From contig CP070665.1 of assembly GCA_020351745.1 (NCBI GenBank), positions 1,125,430 to 1,134,359 on the forward strand: DNA of 8,930 nt. The letters are read 5' to 3'. Made by a program: the position numbers and the translations under genes. The notes under the pieces were generated by a model, which worked only from the letters and a program-made list of their open reading frames with translations, had not been told where the DNA came from and did no database searches. This DNA comes from Candidatus Heimdallarchaeota archaeon. Its GTDB lineage: Archaea; Asgardarchaeota; Heimdallarchaeia; Hodarchaeales; Hodarchaeaceae. Positions 2,850-8,430 of this stretch are shown in pieces. The stretch's first letter is position 1; every line of letters begins with the position of its first letter.

Positions 2850-4382
2850 TCATTGAGTGAGCTGGAGGGTCATCGTACGTTCGGGAGCAACTTTCACTAT
2901 TTTTGCTCGGCCTTTTTTCCACCACCAAAGAATTGCTCCACCTACAGCGCCAACGAAAAGAAGGACCTGAGCAATAATTATCACCCAAATCATATCGAAA
3001 GATCTAGCAAGTTGCGGAAGAAGGATAGCTAATTGACCAGCCATTGTTGCTTGAAGGGTACCATTGAATAATGAGTCGACAGCTGGCATAGTACCACCTC
3101 CGATTATTCCTATTAAAGCTGCTACTTGACTGACACGATGACTGGCAACAGACAATTCTGGGAGATCTAATCGTAGTAAAACTGTTTCTCTCTCGTCTTT
3201 TATGAAGAGGGATCCTTCGAGAGATGTAGCTCGGAATCCTGCTTCTACTAACGGAGTAATAAAGAATGTTAGCACTTTTGGGAGGTTTTGTGGTTTTGGA
3301 TCAATAATTTGAGAAGTGGGTTGTACTAAACATCCACCCAGTAATGGTTCCACAACTATTCGTTTAGTGATATCAAGTAGTTCAAACTCTCCCCGAGTCT
3401 CTTTTTCTTCCTCACCCGATAGAAAGTGCTTCTTATCAGCAGCAATCTTTTTTGCTATCTGCGACAAAGTTACAGTAAATGGATAGGTTTTTCGAGGATT
3501 CATTCTGGAATAATAGTGAACGTGAGTATGAATAGTTTCAGGTTTTATTGTTTCAGGGCTGACTGTGGTGGGTGGTATAGGTTTTTCCTCAATTTCAGTC
3601 TTAAGTTCTTCTTTTATCACCTTTTTTCGTTTTTTTGAAACCTCTTCTTCTCGAATATCAAAACTCTCAGCTGCTTTAATAGGAGCTGCTGTTGGTGCTG
3701 GTGGAGGTGCCTCTGAAGGGGGAGGTGGTGGTGCAGGTTGCGGAGCTGGGGGAGCAGCTCTAGCAGCAGGACGAGATACGGGCGAAACTCCGCCAGAAGG
3801 GCCAGATGGTGTCCTCAAAACAGGTTTAGGGGGAGGGGTTGGCGGAGGCGCGGGTTCTGCAATTTCGGGAGGCGCTTCTGATTTTAGTTTTTCTGATGTA
3901 ATCTCTTCTAAAGCACCTTCAAGGATGTCATCAAGAACTGCTTCATCAAAAGCTGCTACTTCCTCTTTTTCATCCATTGCTTCCTCAATTGTTTCTTCTT
4001 CATGAAGTAAGGGAATGTCTTCTAGTTTACTTGAAAGATTGACCGCGCTTTTAGAGTAAAGCTTATCTGTTGACAGTGCTAATTCAGTTAAAACTGGTTG
4101 AATTTTTTCATATTGGGTTAGTTCTTCCCAAATAGCACCTGCTAAAAGTAAGGTTTCCAGAATAACATATTTACCAGCCTCCGTGGCTTCTTTTAATATT
4201 GTAAGAATAGTTGAAAGAAATCTAGAAGGTGTTTGAGGAAAAAAGGTTTCAAAAGTTGAGGCAAGATAATGATGAAACTCCTTATTATTAACATATTTTG
4301 AGTCGTTTGGGAGAGTTAGAAGAAAATTAGGAACAAAATCTAACCAATTCGAGGCAGATTGAAGAGAGAAAGGGAAAAACAT
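2850..4382 (-). CDS. multidomain membrane-anchored protein: helical/acidic N-terminal domain, polyproline tract, beta-rich domain, C-terminal TM anchor; function unknown
   Basis: 510-aa ORF with ATG at 4382 and GAGGT (4389..4393) 6 nt upstream. aa 1-~125 are helical. aa 125-169 are strongly acidic. aa 170-234 are Pro/Ala-rich (PAPPPTPPPKP, APPAPQPAPPPPPSEAPPPAP). aa 245-265 form a K/E-rich linker. aa ~285-415 show an alternating hydrophobic beta-strand pattern (YPFTVTL, RIVVEPLLGGCLVQP, LTFFITPLVEAG, VLLRLDLPELSV). The hydrophobic span MIWVIIIAQVLLFVGAVGGAILWWW (nt 2919..2993) is followed by KKGRAK. No obvious N-terminal signal peptide. Confidence 0.8.
   Translation of the reverse strand: MFFPFSLQSASNWLDFVPNFLLTLPNDSKYVNNKEFHHYLASTFETFFPQTPSRFLSTILTILKEATEAGKYVILETLLLAGAIWEELTQYEKIQPVLTELALSTDKLYSKSAVNLSSKLEDIPLLHEEETIEEAMDEKEEVAAFDEAVLDDILEGALEEITSEKLKSEAPPEIAEPAPPPTPPPKPVLRTPSGPSGGVSPVSRPAARAAPPAPQPAPPPPPSEAPPPAPTAAPIKAAESFDIREEEVSKKRKKVIKEELKTEIEEKPIPPTTVSPETIKPETIHTHVHYYSRMNPRKTYPFTVTLSQIAKKIAADKKHFLSGEEEKETRGEFELLDITKRIVVEPLLGGCLVQPTSQIIDPKPQNLPKVLTFFITPLVEAGFRATSLEGSLFIKDERETVLLRLDLPELSVASHRVSQVAALIGIIGGGTMPAVDSLFNGTLQATMAGQLAILLPQLARSFDMIWVIIIAQVLLFVGAVGGAILWWWKKGRAKIVKVAPERTMTLQLTQ
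3681..3875 (-). repeat. low-complexity polyproline (Pro/Ala-rich) coding tract; local GC-rich island
   Basis: aa 170-234 of the 510-aa protein. Runs of CCN/GCN codons make this ~200 nt far more GC-rich than the AT-rich surroundings. They also produce the Gly-rich antisense shadow ORF 3565..4005. Confidence 0.8.
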
Positions 4383-4517: not shown

Positions 4518-4901
4518 TCACTTCTGTGACTCTGCACTAGCTCGAAGTATGATGATCTCATTTTGAATTTCTTTAATGAGTTCATCATAAGGGCAAAGAA
4601 GGTATAGATCAATGTTTCTTATCGTCTCAGGGTTATTAATATTAAAAAGAGTTCCTTCATCAACTAATTTGGCTAAACCTTGGGGAACAAACACAATTCC
4701 TTCACGAATGAGTCTAAAGATTTCCCGTAATAAGTTCTCCTTTTCTTGTAATGTTTGTATCCCAAGGAGGTTTAACAGAAACTGTAAATTTTGCCTTTCT
4801 GTGTCCTTAAATGATAATAAAATGAGCGCACGATCTGTTAATTGAACTCGTTCTTCTTCAGTTATTTCAATTTCTTTCGATAGATTTCTGTTAGTTTTCA
4901 T
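4518..4901 (-). CDS. small winged-helix-like protein of unknown family, paralog B (copy of 5406..5870)
   Basis: 127-aa ORF with an ATG start. It aligns without gaps to the 5406..5894 product: 66 identities over 110 positions by my hand count. Shared blocks are DRAL.LLSFKDT, LIREGIV(F/Y)VP.GL, INN, NID..LL.PY(D/E)ELI(K/R)EIQNEI. The helix-rich core followed by a G-I-V-x-V-P hairpin resembles a winged-helix fold; this is inference. Confidence 0.8.
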   Translation of the reverse strand: MKTNRNLSKEIEITEEERVQLTDRALILLSFKDTERQNLQFLLNLLGIQTLQEKENLLREIFRLIREGIVFVPQGLAKLVDEGTLFNINNPETIRNIDLYLLCPYDELIKEIQNEIIILRASAESQK

Positions 4902-4945: not shown

Positions 4946-5422
4946 TTAAAATTGGGGAGATAGGTATAATAGCAATAATCGCTTGAGTAATGAATTATCT
5001 TCAAATCCTAAGGAAGGAATCAGCTCGAAATTGATTTGAGACAAGACCTCAGTTACCGAACAGCTTTTTAGGATGTTTAACTTATCTCTAACAGCATTAA
5101 TTTCATGATAGAGTTCATTTAATTGAGTAAAATTGTTGATTTGGTAATTAAAGACCTTCCGAATCTCCTCAAAATTATTGTAGAGCTTTACAAGTTCTTC
5201 AATAGGAGTTTGGGAAGGTAGTTCGAGTTCTGACTGCATATGTTTTATAAATCGCCAAGTGGCAATTAAATCATGTTCAGAGGAACCATTGGTTAATTTC
5301 AGGAATTCCTTAAGTTGTTTGACTTCTCGCTGTTTTTCACTATCCTTAGATGCAAGATCTTTGTGGAACATCATTTTCCATCCATCCGATTCATTGGTAT
5401 AGTATTTATGGATCTTTAACAA
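4946..5422 (-). CDS. all-helical hypothetical protein, upstream partner of paralog B
   Basis: 158-aa ORF whose listed start is TTG (5422..5420), overlapping the upstream gene by 17 nt. The first ATG pair is at 5374/5371, giving ~142 aa. The sequence is K/E/L/N-rich and looks alpha-helical. The C-terminal SLLKRLLLLYL resembles SELKRLLTYFL in the 5872..6189 product. The stop lies 44 nt upstream of the 4901 start. Confidence 0.65.
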   Translation of the reverse strand: MLKIHKYYTNESDGWKMMFHKDLASKDSEKQREVKQLKEFLKLTNGSSEHDLIATWRFIKHMQSELELPSQTPIEELVKLYNNFEEIRKVFNYQINNFTQLNELYHEINAVRDKLNILKSCSVTEVLSQINFELIPSLGFEDNSLLKRLLLLYLSPQF

Positions 5423-5870
5423 CCGTAATAGTACTCAACTCAGTTATCTCGTTTTGAATTTCACGAATTAATTCCTCATAGGGACGCAGGAGGCATATAT
5501 CAATATTTTCGGCTTCTAAAGAGTTGTTAATATCAAGACGAGAACCTTGATCGATTAATTGAGGGAGTCCACGAGGTACATACACTATCCCCTCTCGAAT
5601 TAAACGGTAAATCTCTTGTAATGTATTCCTCTTCTCTTCTAATGTGCTAATACCAAGAACATTTAAGACATACCGTAAGTTTTGAGTAGAAGTATCTTTG
5701 AACGAAAGAAGCAGAAGAGCACGATCTGCTAAGCGGTGAATATCACTTTCAGTTACCTCTACTCTTTTCTCTTCTTTTGATTGTAAGAATGGTTTATCCA
5801 ATAGAGATTCACGAGCTGTCTTTTTACGATTTGGTTCAACTTTTCGAATCGAAACAAATTCTGAAAACAT
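5406..5870 (-). CDS. small winged-helix-like protein of unknown family, paralog A (with a basic N-terminal extension)
   Basis: The ORF track gives 5406..5894 (162 aa). I prefer the ATG at 5870 (154 aa). GGAGGT (5878..5883) lies 7 nt upstream of it, and the upstream gene stop (5874..5872) is separated from it by one nt (TGAcATG). It is the paralog of 4518..4901, about 60% identical over the ~110-aa core. The extra N-terminal ~35 aa are basic (SIRKVEPNRKKTARE). Confidence 0.8.
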   Translation of the reverse strand: MFSEFVSIRKVEPNRKKTARESLLDKPFLQSKEEKRVEVTESDIHRLADRALLLLSFKDTSTQNLRYVLNVLGISTLEEKRNTLQEIYRLIREGIVYVPRGLPQLIDQGSRLDINNSLEAENIDICLLRPYEELIREIQNEITELSTITVVKDP

Positions 5871-5871
5871 G

Positions 5872-6189
5872 TCAAATACCTCCAGTAAGCGCATACCGAG
5901 AACTATCTGCAGGATCCTGGATCATTTGCAGTCTTTCGTGCGAGAAATATTCGATTAAGTCAAGAAAATAAGTGAGGAGTCGTTTGAGTTCTGACTCTGA
6001 AAAATTATTTTTTTCGTCCATTTGGAGTAAACAGAGCTTATTTTGAAGCTCTAATGAAGAAAAGAGATTCGTAGACATGAATAATAGTTGAAATATTCGA
6101 TCTAATGATTCTTTGATGCCAAATTGGTCGGTTACTTGCACTTTTTTCAACGTCCATGTGTTTTTGGAAATCTTTACTTTGAATAACAA
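5872..6189 (-). CDS. helical hypothetical protein, upstream partner of paralog A (possibly a shortened copy of the 4946..5422 gene)
   Basis: 105-aa ORF whose listed start is TTG (6189..6187). The frame is open up to 6252 with no ATG or GTG, and the first ATG is at 6078 (M38). It shares the LKRLL-type motif with the 158-aa protein, but the overall similarity is weak. Its stop is coupled to the next gene start. Start and authenticity are uncertain. Confidence 0.45.
   Translation of the reverse strand: MLFKVKISKNTWTLKKVQVTDQFGIKESLDRIFQLLFMSTNLFSSLELQNKLCLLQMDEKNNFSESELKRLLTYFLDLIEYFSHERLQMIQDPADSSRYALTGGI
5878..5883 (-). promoter_or_regulatory. Shine-Dalgarno site (GGAGGT) for the ATG at 5870, inside the 3' end of the upstream ORF
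   Basis: Plus-strand acctcc at 5878..5883 reads GGAGGT on the minus strand. It has a 7-nt spacer to ATG 5870..5868, and the TGA of the upstream ORF lies between them (translational coupling). Confidence 0.5.
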
Positions 6190-6440
6190 ATGAAAATCGC
6201 ATGTTGAAATATAGGGAAGTAAATCATTTTGGACATAAATCGAAAAAAGTTGTCAGTAATCATCCAAAATCATCATATGGTAAGAAATGTTAAAAAACGA
6301 CAAAAATCATCAATGGAAAAGCTCTCCCTCCATTGGTACGGAAATCGAAGAATGAATATTGATTACTTAAAAAAGAAGCCATATAGAGTCTGAAATGAGT
6401 CAATAATATTTAGATTTATATGACTGAAGTTGTTTAGAGA

Positions 6441-6600
6441 CATGGAGGGCCATTAAAAGGCCACATGTTACCCTGGGAGGATTACCATTATATATGACAA
6501 ACCAGATTTAACCTAATAGAGTCTTTCAGGGTACTCCCAGGATTAATCTCGGGGGAGTCCTCTTATATGAGGGTATTTGTTGATTTTGTCGGGTTTTTTC
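6441..6600 (+). ncRNA. candidate small structured RNA (unclassified)
   Basis: A locally GC-enriched segment inside a ~500-bp gene-free AT-rich gap. It contains a perfect 8-bp stem, CCTGGGAG (6472..6479) with CTCCCAGG (6534..6541). There is an alternative 6-bp pairing, ACTCCC (6533..6538) with GGGAGT (6553..6558). Small hairpins are GGCC/GGCC (6448..6451 with 6459..6462) and CCTC/GAGG (6559..6562 with 6569..6572). The segment ends in T6 (6594..6599). A TTATATA-like box at 6488..6494 could act as a promoter. Strand and ends are uncertain, and no known RNA family was recognised. Confidence 0.25.
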
Positions 6601-6695
6601 TGCATGTATAAAATAGAGAGGCCTTTATTATGACATACCTATAGTTTAAAGAAAGCACAATCAGATAATCAATTTTGTGTTTTCTAGTATTGAAT

Positions 6696-6848
6696 TCAGT
6701 CTATTATTGTACTAGCTGGTCCAGCAACAACTGCAGTTCCTAATGACGATGCTGCAATGTAGAGCAATATTAGGAATAACCAAGGAAGTAGTTTTAATAG
6801 CGTTAATTCGACATCAATTCTTTTCTCACGATTTCTAACTTTTTTCAT
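6696..6848 (-). CDS. small (50-aa) single-pass membrane protein, hypothetical
   Basis: Below the ORF-track length cutoff. ATG at 6848..6846 and TGA at 6698..6696: MKKVRNREKRIDVELTLLKLLPWLFLILLYIAASSLGTAVVAGPASTIID. It has a basic N-terminus followed by one ~25-residue hydrophobic span. AGGTG (6860..6864) lies 11 nt upstream of the ATG. It is transcribed divergently from the 6991 gene. Confidence 0.4.
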   Translation of the reverse strand: MKKVRNREKRIDVELTLLKLLPWLFLILLYIAASSLGTAVVAGPASTIID

Positions 6849-6956
6849 TGTTTTTTACACACCTATTTCTTTTTATTCGGTTTTTTTTGTTAAATTCTAG
6901 CATTTTAAGCAATCATTTTGCTTAAATGCACATTCGAATATTTTGTTTAGACAGGT

Positions 6957-6964
6957 TTTTAAAT
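6957..6964 (+). promoter_or_regulatory. candidate archaeal TATA box (TTTTAAAT) for the regulator gene, implying a near-leaderless mRNA
   Basis: TTTTAAAT at 6957..6964 ends 27 nt upstream of ATG 6991. There is no SD in between. With a TATA centred near -26/-27, transcription would start within a few nt of that ATG. Confidence 0.3.
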
Positions 6965-6990
6965 CATACTACCCTTCTTTTCGGCATCAA

Positions 6991-8430
6991 ATGCCTCTCC
7001 CCAAACAAATCCCATCAATTCTTGACAATTTCCGACAAAACCTCAAAATATACAAAATTGAGGAATTTGTACTTGATTTTCTCAATATCTGGATGTACAT
7101 CCATGAAAATGCTAAGGATTATTCACTGGAAGACACTCTGATATTAACAAAGAAAATCTTGGATTCTCATATTATTCCATTCTATGAGAAATTTAAAGCG
7201 GATGATAGTCTAGAATTAAATGAGAGTTGGCTTAAAGACTATGCTTCTATTGTAGTAAAGTGGAGAGAAAGGGGAGGTCACTTATTCCCTCTGAAATTAG
7301 TTGCTTATGAGATATGTTATCATCAAAAACAGCTTTTTGAATTTTTCATACAAAAATTGATAACAAAAGAGATTAATGGAGATAGAGAAGCGTTATTTGA
7401 ATTTCTTTACCCTATTTTATCGAATTTCGTAGTGCCTCTTGATGATTTGTACATATCCTTTTTAAAAGCTTTTCAGGGATTAGAAAAGCATAATCCAACA
7501 TATTATAAACAACCAACTCAAATGGATTTCGCAAGGCATTTAGACATCTCTCCCAGAACCGTTTTACGTCGTATGAATGTAATACGCCTATTACAGATGG
7601 TTAACGCTCTTCATTTCTTGGATATGGGGAAACTAGGTTTCGAGACAACTTTATTTGTACATTCAAACGTTTTCCCAAAACAGTATGAGAAATATTTGCT
7701 ATTCTCAACTAATTTGACAGTAGGAACTTTCAGTGTTGTTCAGATCCCTTACAAAAAAGCACAAGAAATATTCTCCCTTCAAGAATGTCTTGAAATTTTA
7801 ATTTCTCAATCAATGGCATCAAAGGTTTCTTCATGGAATTTAACAGGTCTGTCTCAAGGGGAAGTAACATGGCGAACTTCTCCTCCATTTCTCCATGCCA
7901 ACGCGGATATTTCCCTCATTTCTCCTAGTCCTGACATTTGTTTCTCTCTCAAACCTTCTTTTGATTCTTTTCGGCCACTTACTCCTGCTGATGTTAAAAT
8001 TCTTGATTTTCTTACCACTAGAGGGAGTTTTACAAGTATTAGACAACTTAGTGACACTATAGAAGTTTCAGCCCCAGAAATTTCAAAACGACTTCAAGAA
8101 TACGGAAAGGAAAAGATATTGGTTAAGATGTACCAATATTATAATATTGGATTAGATCTAACAATATTCTTCTTTGTTTCCACTGAAGAGAATACAATTC
8201 CATGGGTTCAGCATTTCCTCAGTTTTCCAAGATGTGATGTCTATTATCAAGGTGAAGAATCACCTTATTATTATTTTGGGTACATTAAATTGCCTAATTA
8301 TTGGATTAAAGCTTTTTCTCGGAAAATAGATTTGATCAAGAGAGATTTCGGTGTTAAAATATATTATAAAATCGCAAGTTCGGTTGATTATGTAAAATGG
8401 GGAGTTGAGCTGAGTAAAACATATTTCTAA
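6991..8430 (+). CDS. large transcription-regulator-like protein: helical N-terminal domain plus two tandem HTH + Lrp/AsnC (RAM)-like modules
   Basis: The ORF track gives 6943..8430 (495 aa) from a TTG. I prefer ATG 6991 (479 aa) because of the TATA-like box 27 nt upstream. HTH1 is TQMDFARHLDISPRTVLRRMNVIRLL (nt 7516..7596), followed by LGFETTLFVHS. HTH2 is LTPADVKILDFLTTRGSFTSIRQLSDTIEVSAPEISKRLQEYGKEKIL (nt 7981..8127), followed by YNIGLDLTIFFFVS. The pattern of an HTH, then G-(L/F)-(D/E)-x-T-hydrophobic strand, looks Lrp/AsnC-like. TAA at 8428..8430. Confidence 0.8.
   Translation: MPLPKQIPSILDNFRQNLKIYKIEEFVLDFLNIWMYIHENAKDYSLEDTLILTKKILDSHIIPFYEKFKADDSLELNESWLKDYASIVVKWRERGGHLFPLKLVAYEICYHQKQLFEFFIQKLITKEINGDREALFEFLYPILSNFVVPLDDLYISFLKAFQGLEKHNPTYYKQPTQMDFARHLDISPRTVLRRMNVIRLLQMVNALHFLDMGKLGFETTLFVHSNVFPKQYEKYLLFSTNLTVGTFSVVQIPYKKAQEIFSLQECLEILISQSMASKVSSWNLTGLSQGEVTWRTSPPFLHANADISLISPSPDICFSLKPSFDSFRPLTPADVKILDFLTTRGSFTSIRQLSDTIEVSAPEISKRLQEYGKEKILVKMYQYYNIGLDLTIFFFVSTEENTIPWVQHFLSFPRCDVYYQGEESPYYYFGYIKLPNYWIKAFSRKIDLIKRDFGVKIYYKIASSVDYVKWGVELSKTYF

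Follow-up and report, generated by a model that had tools for sequence, protein, structure and literature searches.

We analysed a stretch of 8,930 nucleotides (the window) from contig CP070665.1 of a Candidatus Heimdallarchaeota archaeon, in which a minus-strand open reading frame (ORF) at 2850..4382 forms a coding sequence (CDS) for a protein of 510 amino acids (aa). A homologue search returned 51 close relatives of about 450-580 aa, all named 'hypothetical' and none with a Pfam domain. Their source names are all of Heimdall/Hodarchaeales-type Asgard archaea, with a few labels of metagenome-assembled genomes (MAGs) reading Promethearchaeota, Thorarchaeota or Pacearchaeota, and they support the Asgard-type source at which a first-pass annotation of the window had guessed. 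The CDS is an orthologue of a single-copy family in these archaea, and its start is backed by the N-terminal sequence MxFPFSL, which is conserved in 44 orthologues. The ORF is a real gene, native to a Heimdall-type Asgard archaeon, as judged from the 51 close relatives, the conserved N-terminus, and the base and codon usage of its most unusual segment, which is like that of the rest of the gene (see below). Scans of the window for Rfam families and tRNAs gave no match, and a scan for bacterial promoters and terminators, with models that are not applicable to archaea, gave results at chance level.

Parts of the protein and its proline-rich tract

An AlphaFold2 (AF2) model built with a 45-sequence alignment, together with hydropathy and charge counts, divides the protein into consecutive parts, all encoded on the minus strand. 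The N-terminal head (aa 1-125; 4008..4382) is a seven-helix alpha-solenoid modelled with a predicted local distance difference test (pLDDT) score of 84-97. It is followed by an acidic disordered segment that contains the FDEAVLDDILEGA island (aa 126-169; 3876..4007; pLDDT <50), a Pro/Ala-rich tract (aa 170-235; 3678..3875), and a K/E-rich predicted helix (KKRKK) with a short P/T-rich lead-in behind it (aa 236-281; 3540..3677), modelled at low confidence. The whole of aa 127-280 is without confident structure (pLDDT <50). A beta-sandwich (aa 282-412; 3147..3539; pLDDT about 90) then opens a conserved C-terminal region, the anchor module described below. Behind the sandwich lie a first hydrophobic segment (aa 416-435, RVSQVAALIGIIGGGTMPAV; 3078..3137), a short acidic loop almost devoid of K or R (aa 436-463; 2994..3077), a strong transmembrane helix with Kyte-Doolittle (KD) hydropathy up to 2.6 (aa 464-487; 2922..2993), and a tail that is basic by its K+R count (aa 488-510, WKKGRAK...APERTMTLQLTQ; 2853..2921), so that KKGRAK directly follows the transmembrane helix. 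The model shows aa 416-496 as a set of helices. This is the layout that the first-pass annotation had read from the sequence, with a helical head and acidic tail, a Pro/Ala tract, a beta-sandwich, a weak hydrophobic stretch, a transmembrane helix and KKGRAK, and the AF2 model and hydropathy confirm it.

The Pro/Ala-rich tract comprises 66 residues, among them 28 prolines and 13 alanines, with runs of PPP, PPP, PPPPP and PPP. It had been placed at nt 3681..3875 with 65 residues; the tract is real, and only its bounds are moved here, to nt 3678-3875. A sharp GC island claimed for the same place is real as well, since GC in the tract region is 0.50-0.59 in 200-nt windows versus a background of about 0.35. 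Codon positions 1 and 2 of the tract, with GC of 0.79 and 0.83, alone produce this island. GC at third codon positions (GC3) is 0.26 in the tract and 0.14-0.32 in the remaining gene, and proline is encoded chiefly by CCT and CCA within the tract and outside it alike. The GC island thus reflects, at the nucleotide level, the amino-acid composition of the tract. Horizontal transfer as its source was rejected on the grounds of native GC3 and codon choice. Replication slippage or foreign DNA as the origin of the tract was rejected likewise, on the native GC3 and on a search for tandem DNA repeats in the tract, which found none.

Conservation was measured on 45 orthologues in one alignment, with identities down to 37%. 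The head is well conserved and the C-terminal half most of all, as exemplified by HTHVHYYSRMNPRKTYPFTVTLS, SGE.E.ETRGEF, EPLLSGCLVQP, FFVTPL, GGGAMPALD and WWWKKGRAK. The sandwich motifs of the window protein itself, HYYSRMNPRKTYPF, SGE, GGCLVQP and FFITPL, occupy columns that are invariant across the orthologues. The region between head and C-terminal half contains many indels, and the linker ranges from 107 to 231 aa. Its proline content is 9-22%, versus about 5% elsewhere in the protein, and the best 40-aa window holds 25-50% proline in 45 of 45 orthologues. The selection for proline richness despite AT bias that had been proposed from the single sequence is thus borne out across the family. 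The runs of three or more prolines behave otherwise: each orthologue has 0-4 of them, at positions that are not conserved, and six of the 45 lack them altogether. The orthologues therefore vary largely freely within the tract, in indels, in length and in the number of PPP runs. The sole conserved island of the linker that is not proline is an acidic FDE..LDDIL, whose columns are 64-67% conserved and which is absent from distant orthologues. A conserved linear motif in the linker was considered on this account and rejected, since LDDIL is kept only among the closer orthologues.

An anchor module with many heads

To see how far the family extends, its profile was searched exhaustively with HMMER against 1.84 billion representative sequences at a cutoff of E<=1e-3. 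The search yielded 211 proteins. Some of these represent orthologues and a few are fragments; in about 190 others the match is confined to profile positions of about 130-490. As a guard against effects of the low-complexity linker, a linker-free hidden Markov model (HMM) was built from aa 278-510. It matches 139 of 141 representatives with independent E-values (i-E) of 1e-8 to 1e-31. The motifs of the sandwich are common to about 140 distant paralogues. In an alignment of 25 modules the signature reads Y[FY]xxMNPxxxYP, LTGE, PxFPGCLVTP, FxxTPL and KVxxxR[IVY][SA][KR], or in short form Y[FY]xxMNP..YP, PGC[LIV]VxP, FxxTPL and R[IVY][SA][KR], and it continues with a hydrophobic segment with central G and P, a short loop, a strongly hydrophobic segment and a basic tail. 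The strong transmembrane segment is present in nearly all paralogues. These results demonstrate that the C-terminal beta-sandwich and the membrane segments constitute a module common to many proteins with different heads.

The N-terminal heads are mutually unrelated and fall into at least 52 clusters among 118 representatives in an all-against-all BLAST comparison. Pfam recognises Ras/Roc GTPases in 7 of 84, STAS domains in 6 and FHA domains in 6, and further heads match TPR, MshEN, MCPsignal, Band_7, Arf and Ufm1-like (ubiquitin-like) families. Source names of the paralogues include Heimdallarchaeota LC3, Hodarchaeales and Kariarchaeaceae. In a STAS-headed branch (P0264, P0209, P0220 and P0253), one member stems from a Planctomycetota MAG, and P0253 carries only the label 'bacterium'; Asgard archaea are thus not the only carriers of the module, and its transfer between bacteria and Asgard archaea is possible.

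Some paralogues have unusual architectures. In P0145 and P0156, both from Hodarchaeales, the order of parts in the Ras-like heads suggests a circular permutation, with residues 6-94 matching positions 45-135 of the Ras profile and residues 146-184, which include the P-loop GEPDIGKT, matching positions 1-39 of the Roc profile. P0225 and P0239 have the sandwich followed by an FHA domain and show no strong hydrophobic segment in their last 80 residues; P0239 additionally has an Arf/SR-beta-like GTPase region.

A proline-rich stretch usually accompanies the module. In 112 paralogues the module is preceded by 150 residues or more, and in 74 of these the preceding part includes a 40-aa window of at least 25% proline. 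Across 80 paralogues, the zone 40-140 aa ahead of the module has a mean of 16-20% proline, versus 5-8% farther off, and contains about 2% aromatic residues with an acidic net charge. A polybasic membrane-proximal patch was considered and rejected, the region being net acidic on average. In P0141 the spacer position is taken by about twelve tandem APPAPSA repeats, an extreme, repeat-generated form of spacer.

The only library family touched by these modules is Pfam DUF7363, which is reached by 3 of the 25 modules with a best E of 3e-4, all below the Pfam cutoff; the window protein gave no match to it. Literature searches found no mention of DUF7363, an uncharacterised family, and no description of the anchor-module family. 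The latter appears to be an undescribed, lineage-expanded and highly modular family.

Probable membrane topology and proposed spacer role

We then considered how the protein is placed in the membrane. No signal peptide was seen: a basic n-region is missing from the N-terminus, and the AF2 model places residues 10-22 in a helix that belongs to the folded head. Charges are distributed in the same manner in orthologues and paralogues. The stretch of about 27-30 residues between the two hydrophobic segments has a mean of 0.4-0.9 K+R versus 2.8-3.1 D+E, and the tail of about 20 residues has a mean of 5.0-5.1 K+R. Arginine or lysine residues precede the first hydrophobic segment, the central G and P of which are conserved, and in the paralogues this segment has a mean KD of 1.87 and values up to 2.5. 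By the positive-inside rule basic segments stay on the cytoplasmic side, and GTPase, FHA and STAS domains are cytoplasmic, as they need cytoplasmic nucleotides or phosphoproteins. From the charge distribution, the lack of a signal peptide and the cytoplasmic type of the paralogue heads, we infer a hairpin with both ends in the cytoplasm. The first hydrophobic segment would probably be the first arm of this hairpin, the loop of aa 436-463 probably lies on the outer face, and the basic tail is probably cytoplasmic. The membrane tether and the second, weaker hydrophobic stretch noted in the first-pass annotation, which had left the topology ambiguous, are both seen in the hydropathy, and a tether facing the cytoplasm is the most likely arrangement.

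The linker was examined for motifs by comparing the Pro-rich cores of the orthologues with composition-matched shuffles. PxxP shows no enrichment (271 observed versus 275.5 expected, z -0.4), PPP runs show a marginal excess (z about 2), and alternating PxP is strongly enriched (396 observed versus 280 expected, z 9.8). Alternating PxP is typical of rigid extended spacers. On the best reading of these sequence statistics, selection would act on composition and X-Pro alternation, and not on exact sequence, SH3-type motifs or long polyproline motifs. Taken with the conservation pattern, the composition statistics make an extended spacer the best reading of the tract. The proline stretch is best explained as part of the tether because its position with respect to the anchor stays the same from one head to another.

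We consider it fairly probable, as our preferred reading, that the protein is a three-part membrane tether of the cytoplasmic face, composed of a head, an extended spacer and a new anchor module. The C-terminal 230 residues or so would consist of the beta-sandwich and of two hydrophobic segments inserted as a membrane hairpin, with sandwich and tail on the cytoplasmic side. The disordered region of about 160 residues, with the Pro/Ala tract at its centre, would form the extended spacer and, from polyproline-II geometry, could hold the head some tens of nanometres off the membrane. The alpha-solenoid of 125 residues would be the working end, probably a protein-binding domain, and small proteins encoded just upstream may be among its partners. 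Anchor and spacer together would make a reusable chassis that carries dozens of heads in Heimdall-type Asgard archaea and, among bacteria, in at least one branch.

Fold searches with head and sandwich, which had been suggested in the first-pass annotation, returned leads to tepsin and VAP-A, none of them significant. The best fold match of the head is the VHS/ENTH-like domain of tepsin (5wf2; template modelling (TM) score 0.67, root-mean-square deviation (rmsd) 3.1 A over 115 columns, E 0.03), and HEAT/ARM repeats score alongside it in Foldseek against the PDB. Pfam and PDB profile searches with the head alignment gave no match, including none to ENTH/VHS. For the sandwich the leads are the MSP domain of VAP-A (6tqr_A, E 6e-3, probability 0.99, TM score 0.40-0.44, rmsd 5-8 A; also 2rr3) and, with similar scores, immunoglobulin-like (Ig-like) domains of TRAP subunits, the EcpB chaperone, CARDB, RhoGDI, p53, TRAPPII, an adhesin and a pilin; its predicted fold class is that of an Ig-like sandwich. 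Foldseek against viral models (BFVD) was uninformative. Four alignments were also compared as profiles with the PDB, without result; all that the full-length profile found was the Ala/Pro linkers of 2-oxoacid dehydrogenase E2 chains, at E>=0.13.

Several results weigh against the tether reading or parts of it. Foldseek against the PDB gave no match at E<=1e-3 for head or sandwich, and Pfam and NCBIfam searches with the whole protein, head, sandwich and module gave nothing above threshold, so that in these searches head and sandwich have no significant sequence or fold relative. The first hydrophobic segment of the window protein is borderline, with KD 1.5-1.7, and AF2 confidence is as low as 49-69 at aa 420-460, so that the membrane segments may instead be arranged as a single pass or at the interface. 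Kinship among the orthologues inflates the motif z-scores, the ranking of PxP above PPP and PPP above PxxP standing nonetheless, and PPP runs are enriched in the paralogues too (ratio 1.5, confounded by local proline density). As to partners of the head, three other paralogues of the gene next to the target (g4, below) do not lie beside anchor-module genes, and the wider neighbourhood looks largely like general synteny, by which the case for partnership looks weak.

Three other explanations were weighed against the tether. The one that had been put forward at the outset, a docking array of eukaryotic style, takes the tract as a set of docking motifs on a membrane scaffold which recruits profilin-actin or another polyproline-binding module, in the manner of the proline regions of formin FH1, Ena/VASP or the bacterial proteins BimA and ActA. 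The tract does hold PPPxPPP and PPPPP, the tether most likely faces the cytoplasm, and proline richness is kept in all orthologues. The profilins of Heimdall LC3 and of a Thor archaeon bind a VASP polyproline peptide, and the authors of that work describe polyproline motifs as common in Asgard proteins and name no physiological ligand (PMC8410842). The measured dissociation constant (Kd), given for Heimdall LC3 profilin and the VASP peptide, is however only 0.3-3.3 mM (PMC8410842). A weak NCBIfam match to the proline region of BimA (E 0.004, 16 bits versus a cutoff of 600) is a low-complexity match. The length of the linker in orthologues and the number and positions of their PPP runs are those of a variable region, PPP is marginally enriched and PxxP not at all, and paralogues headed by GTPase, STAS or FHA domains have the same proline-rich stretch. 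No FH2, WH2, EVH2 or other actin-related domain turned up when the protein was searched against Pfam, NCBIfam and PDB profiles. We therefore regard docking as an unlikely role of the tract. A wider proposal would join the two ideas: anchor and spacer would be the means by which the Heimdall lineage posts signalling and trafficking domains (Ras/Arf-like GTPases, ubiquitin-like, FHA and STAS domains, and the ENTH/HEAT-like head) at the membrane by protein and not by lipid, and the spacers would double as weak landing sites for profilin-actin, coupling the membrane to the actin cytoskeleton and foreshadowing the membrane-cytoskeleton adaptors of eukaryotes. As a joint claim this is speculative, and we think it quite unlikely to hold in full.

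The two remaining explanations concern the sandwich and the side of the membrane on which it lies. In a VAP-like tether, an MSP/PapD-like sandwich would bind acidic-aromatic (FFAT-like) motifs, perhaps the linker island FDEAVLDD. The top PDB fold matches do include the VAP-A MSP domain (6tqr_A and 2rr3), the PapD/ASH-type EcpB and TRAPPII, the order of sandwich and transmembrane segment resembles that of VAP, and there is a local likeness between VQPTSQIIDP and VRPNSGIIDP of VAP, the only segment that hhalign aligns. But the fold matches are below significance at the TM score and rmsd given above, IIDP is not conserved in the superfamily, the acidic-aromatic island occurs only in closer orthologues, and Pfam MSP (PF00635) is not matched even at E<=10. 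Profile-profile comparison by hhalign with VAP, Scs2 and MSP-domain sequences verified against the PDB gave a probability of 0.15%, and membership in the MSP domain family was rejected. A VAP-like function is thus very unlikely. An extracellular surface protein, S-layer-associated or of sortase/archaeosortase type, in which the proline-rich region is a stalk and the C-terminal transmembrane segment and basic tail are the anchor, had also been named as an alternative in the first-pass annotation. A Pro-rich stalk and an Ig-like sandwich ahead of a C-terminal transmembrane segment and basic cluster is indeed a common surface layout, and adhesin, pilin and CARDB-type sandwiches are among the fold matches. 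Yet the N-terminus has no signal peptide, its residues 10-22 lying within the folded head; NCBIfam and Pfam gave no match to PGF-CTERM or any other sorting model, the tail having a conserved sequence of its own (WWWKKGRAK..AP.R..LQL); the same module carries the cytoplasmic GTPase, FHA and STAS heads in paralogues; and the second hydrophobic segment with its charge pattern fits a hairpin. On these grounds a surface location is highly improbable, and the cytoplasmic tether is the reading we retain.

Gene neighbourhood and known systems

Upstream of the target gene lie four small minus-strand ORFs, here called g1 to g4. None of the four has a Pfam match. Three of them, g1 (5872-6141, with a probable start), g2 (5406-5894) and g3 (4946-5422), overlap one another. 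The fourth, g4 (4518-4901), lies immediately upstream of the target and encodes a winged-helix-like protein of 127 aa; g2 is its paralogue, with 50-60% identity. Six orthologous loci (L001-L006) were compared. At L002-L006 the target is the last gene of a same-strand run of five, after ORFs of about 89, 155, 145 and 125 aa, and L001 keeps only a shortened g3 and g4 upstream of it. The g4 gene adjoins the target at every locus examined, and consecutive NCBI locus tags place it beside the target in eight further genomes. The 76 members of its family all come from Heimdall-type archaea, which have several copies in each genome. The AF2 model of g4 (pLDDT 75) is a winged helix with long flanking helices, and the nearest folds, MarR, SarA, CadC and AspA, are all at E >0.2 and none is significant. 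The idea that g4-type genes always accompany anchor-module genes was rejected, given the three paralogues mentioned above. The link between g4 and the target may be regulatory or simply conserved synteny.

Directly downstream of the target is a pair of M16 peptidase genes on the minus strand. The HxxEH zinc motif is intact in the distal gene (205-1518), as HFIEH, and absent from the proximal gene (1532-2782), a pattern like that of active/inactive M16B heterodimers. The pair lies beside the target in most loci and is absent from L004 and L005, which belong to one lineage; its absence there argues against an obligatory functional link with the target. Beyond the pair, at 2-169 on the minus strand, is the start of an AP_endonuc_2-type protein with 59% identity to a neighbour at L006, by which synteny with the other loci continues past the M16 genes.

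On the other side, a plus-strand ORF of 495 aa (6943-8430), with a weak match to winged helix-turn-helix domains, is divergent from the g1-g4 run. A paralogue of it with 22% identity is found at L008 (3839-5293), divergent from another g4 paralogue, and a homologue with 48% identity lies elsewhere at L006 (15449-16894). The families of the 495-aa ORF and of g4 may form a recurring pairing. The stretch of about 750 bases between g1 and the 495-aa ORF (6190-6942) is free of ORFs of at least 60 aa, of Rfam matches and of tRNAs. On the upstream side other loci have a DUF364 gene and a ParA/CbiA gene, no remnant of which was detectable in 6190-6942.

Taken alone, the proline tract is of an ordinary kind, a spacer whose composition is conserved and whose sequence is not. 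It led, however, to a large unannotated modular family, in which one anchor module, usually with a proline spacer, is joined to dozens of cytoplasmic heads, and whose archaeal hosts belong to the lineage nearest to eukaryotes. Should the predicted topology be correct, these proteins would attach small GTPases and further signalling domains to membranes by a protein-based means, and would bear on membrane-associated regulation before eukaryotic lipid anchors and coat adaptors. The spacers also offer natural proline-rich candidates, such as APPPTPPPKP and QPAPPPPPSEAPPPAP, for a possible physiological ligand of the weakly polyproline-binding Asgard profilins.

Comparison with known systems reveals partial likenesses. 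As in formin FH1 regions, Ena/VASP and BimA, runs of three to five prolines with short spacers lie in a disordered region, but here there is no adjoining actin-binding domain, the number and position of motifs are not conserved, and PxxP is not enriched. The adaptors GGA, epsin and tepsin have an alpha-solenoid head, a long disordered acidic or proline-rich region and a beta-sandwich in the same order. They are soluble and reach the membrane via lipids or Arf, whereas the present protein is an integral membrane protein, without a conserved linear motif in its hinge and without a significant domain match to them. VAPA, VAPB and Scs2 likewise carry an Ig-like sandwich near a C-terminal membrane anchor on the cytoplasmic face; they have neither an N-terminal head nor a Pro-rich linker, in contrast to the protein described here, with its two-segment, hairpin-like anchor and basic tail. 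The relation to DUF7363, touched below cutoff by 3 of 25 paralogue modules, does not extend to the window protein. Pfam and NCBIfam found no TonB_C domain in the 510-aa protein, and it has no sequence relationship to TonB. TonB nevertheless resembles it in having a membrane anchor, a long X-Pro-rich spacer that varies in length and sequence while keeping its composition, and a globular domain at the far end. The difference lies in the anchor: TonB is anchored N-terminally and spans the periplasm, whereas the protein described here has a C-terminal anchor of sandwich and hairpin and most likely faces the cytoplasm.

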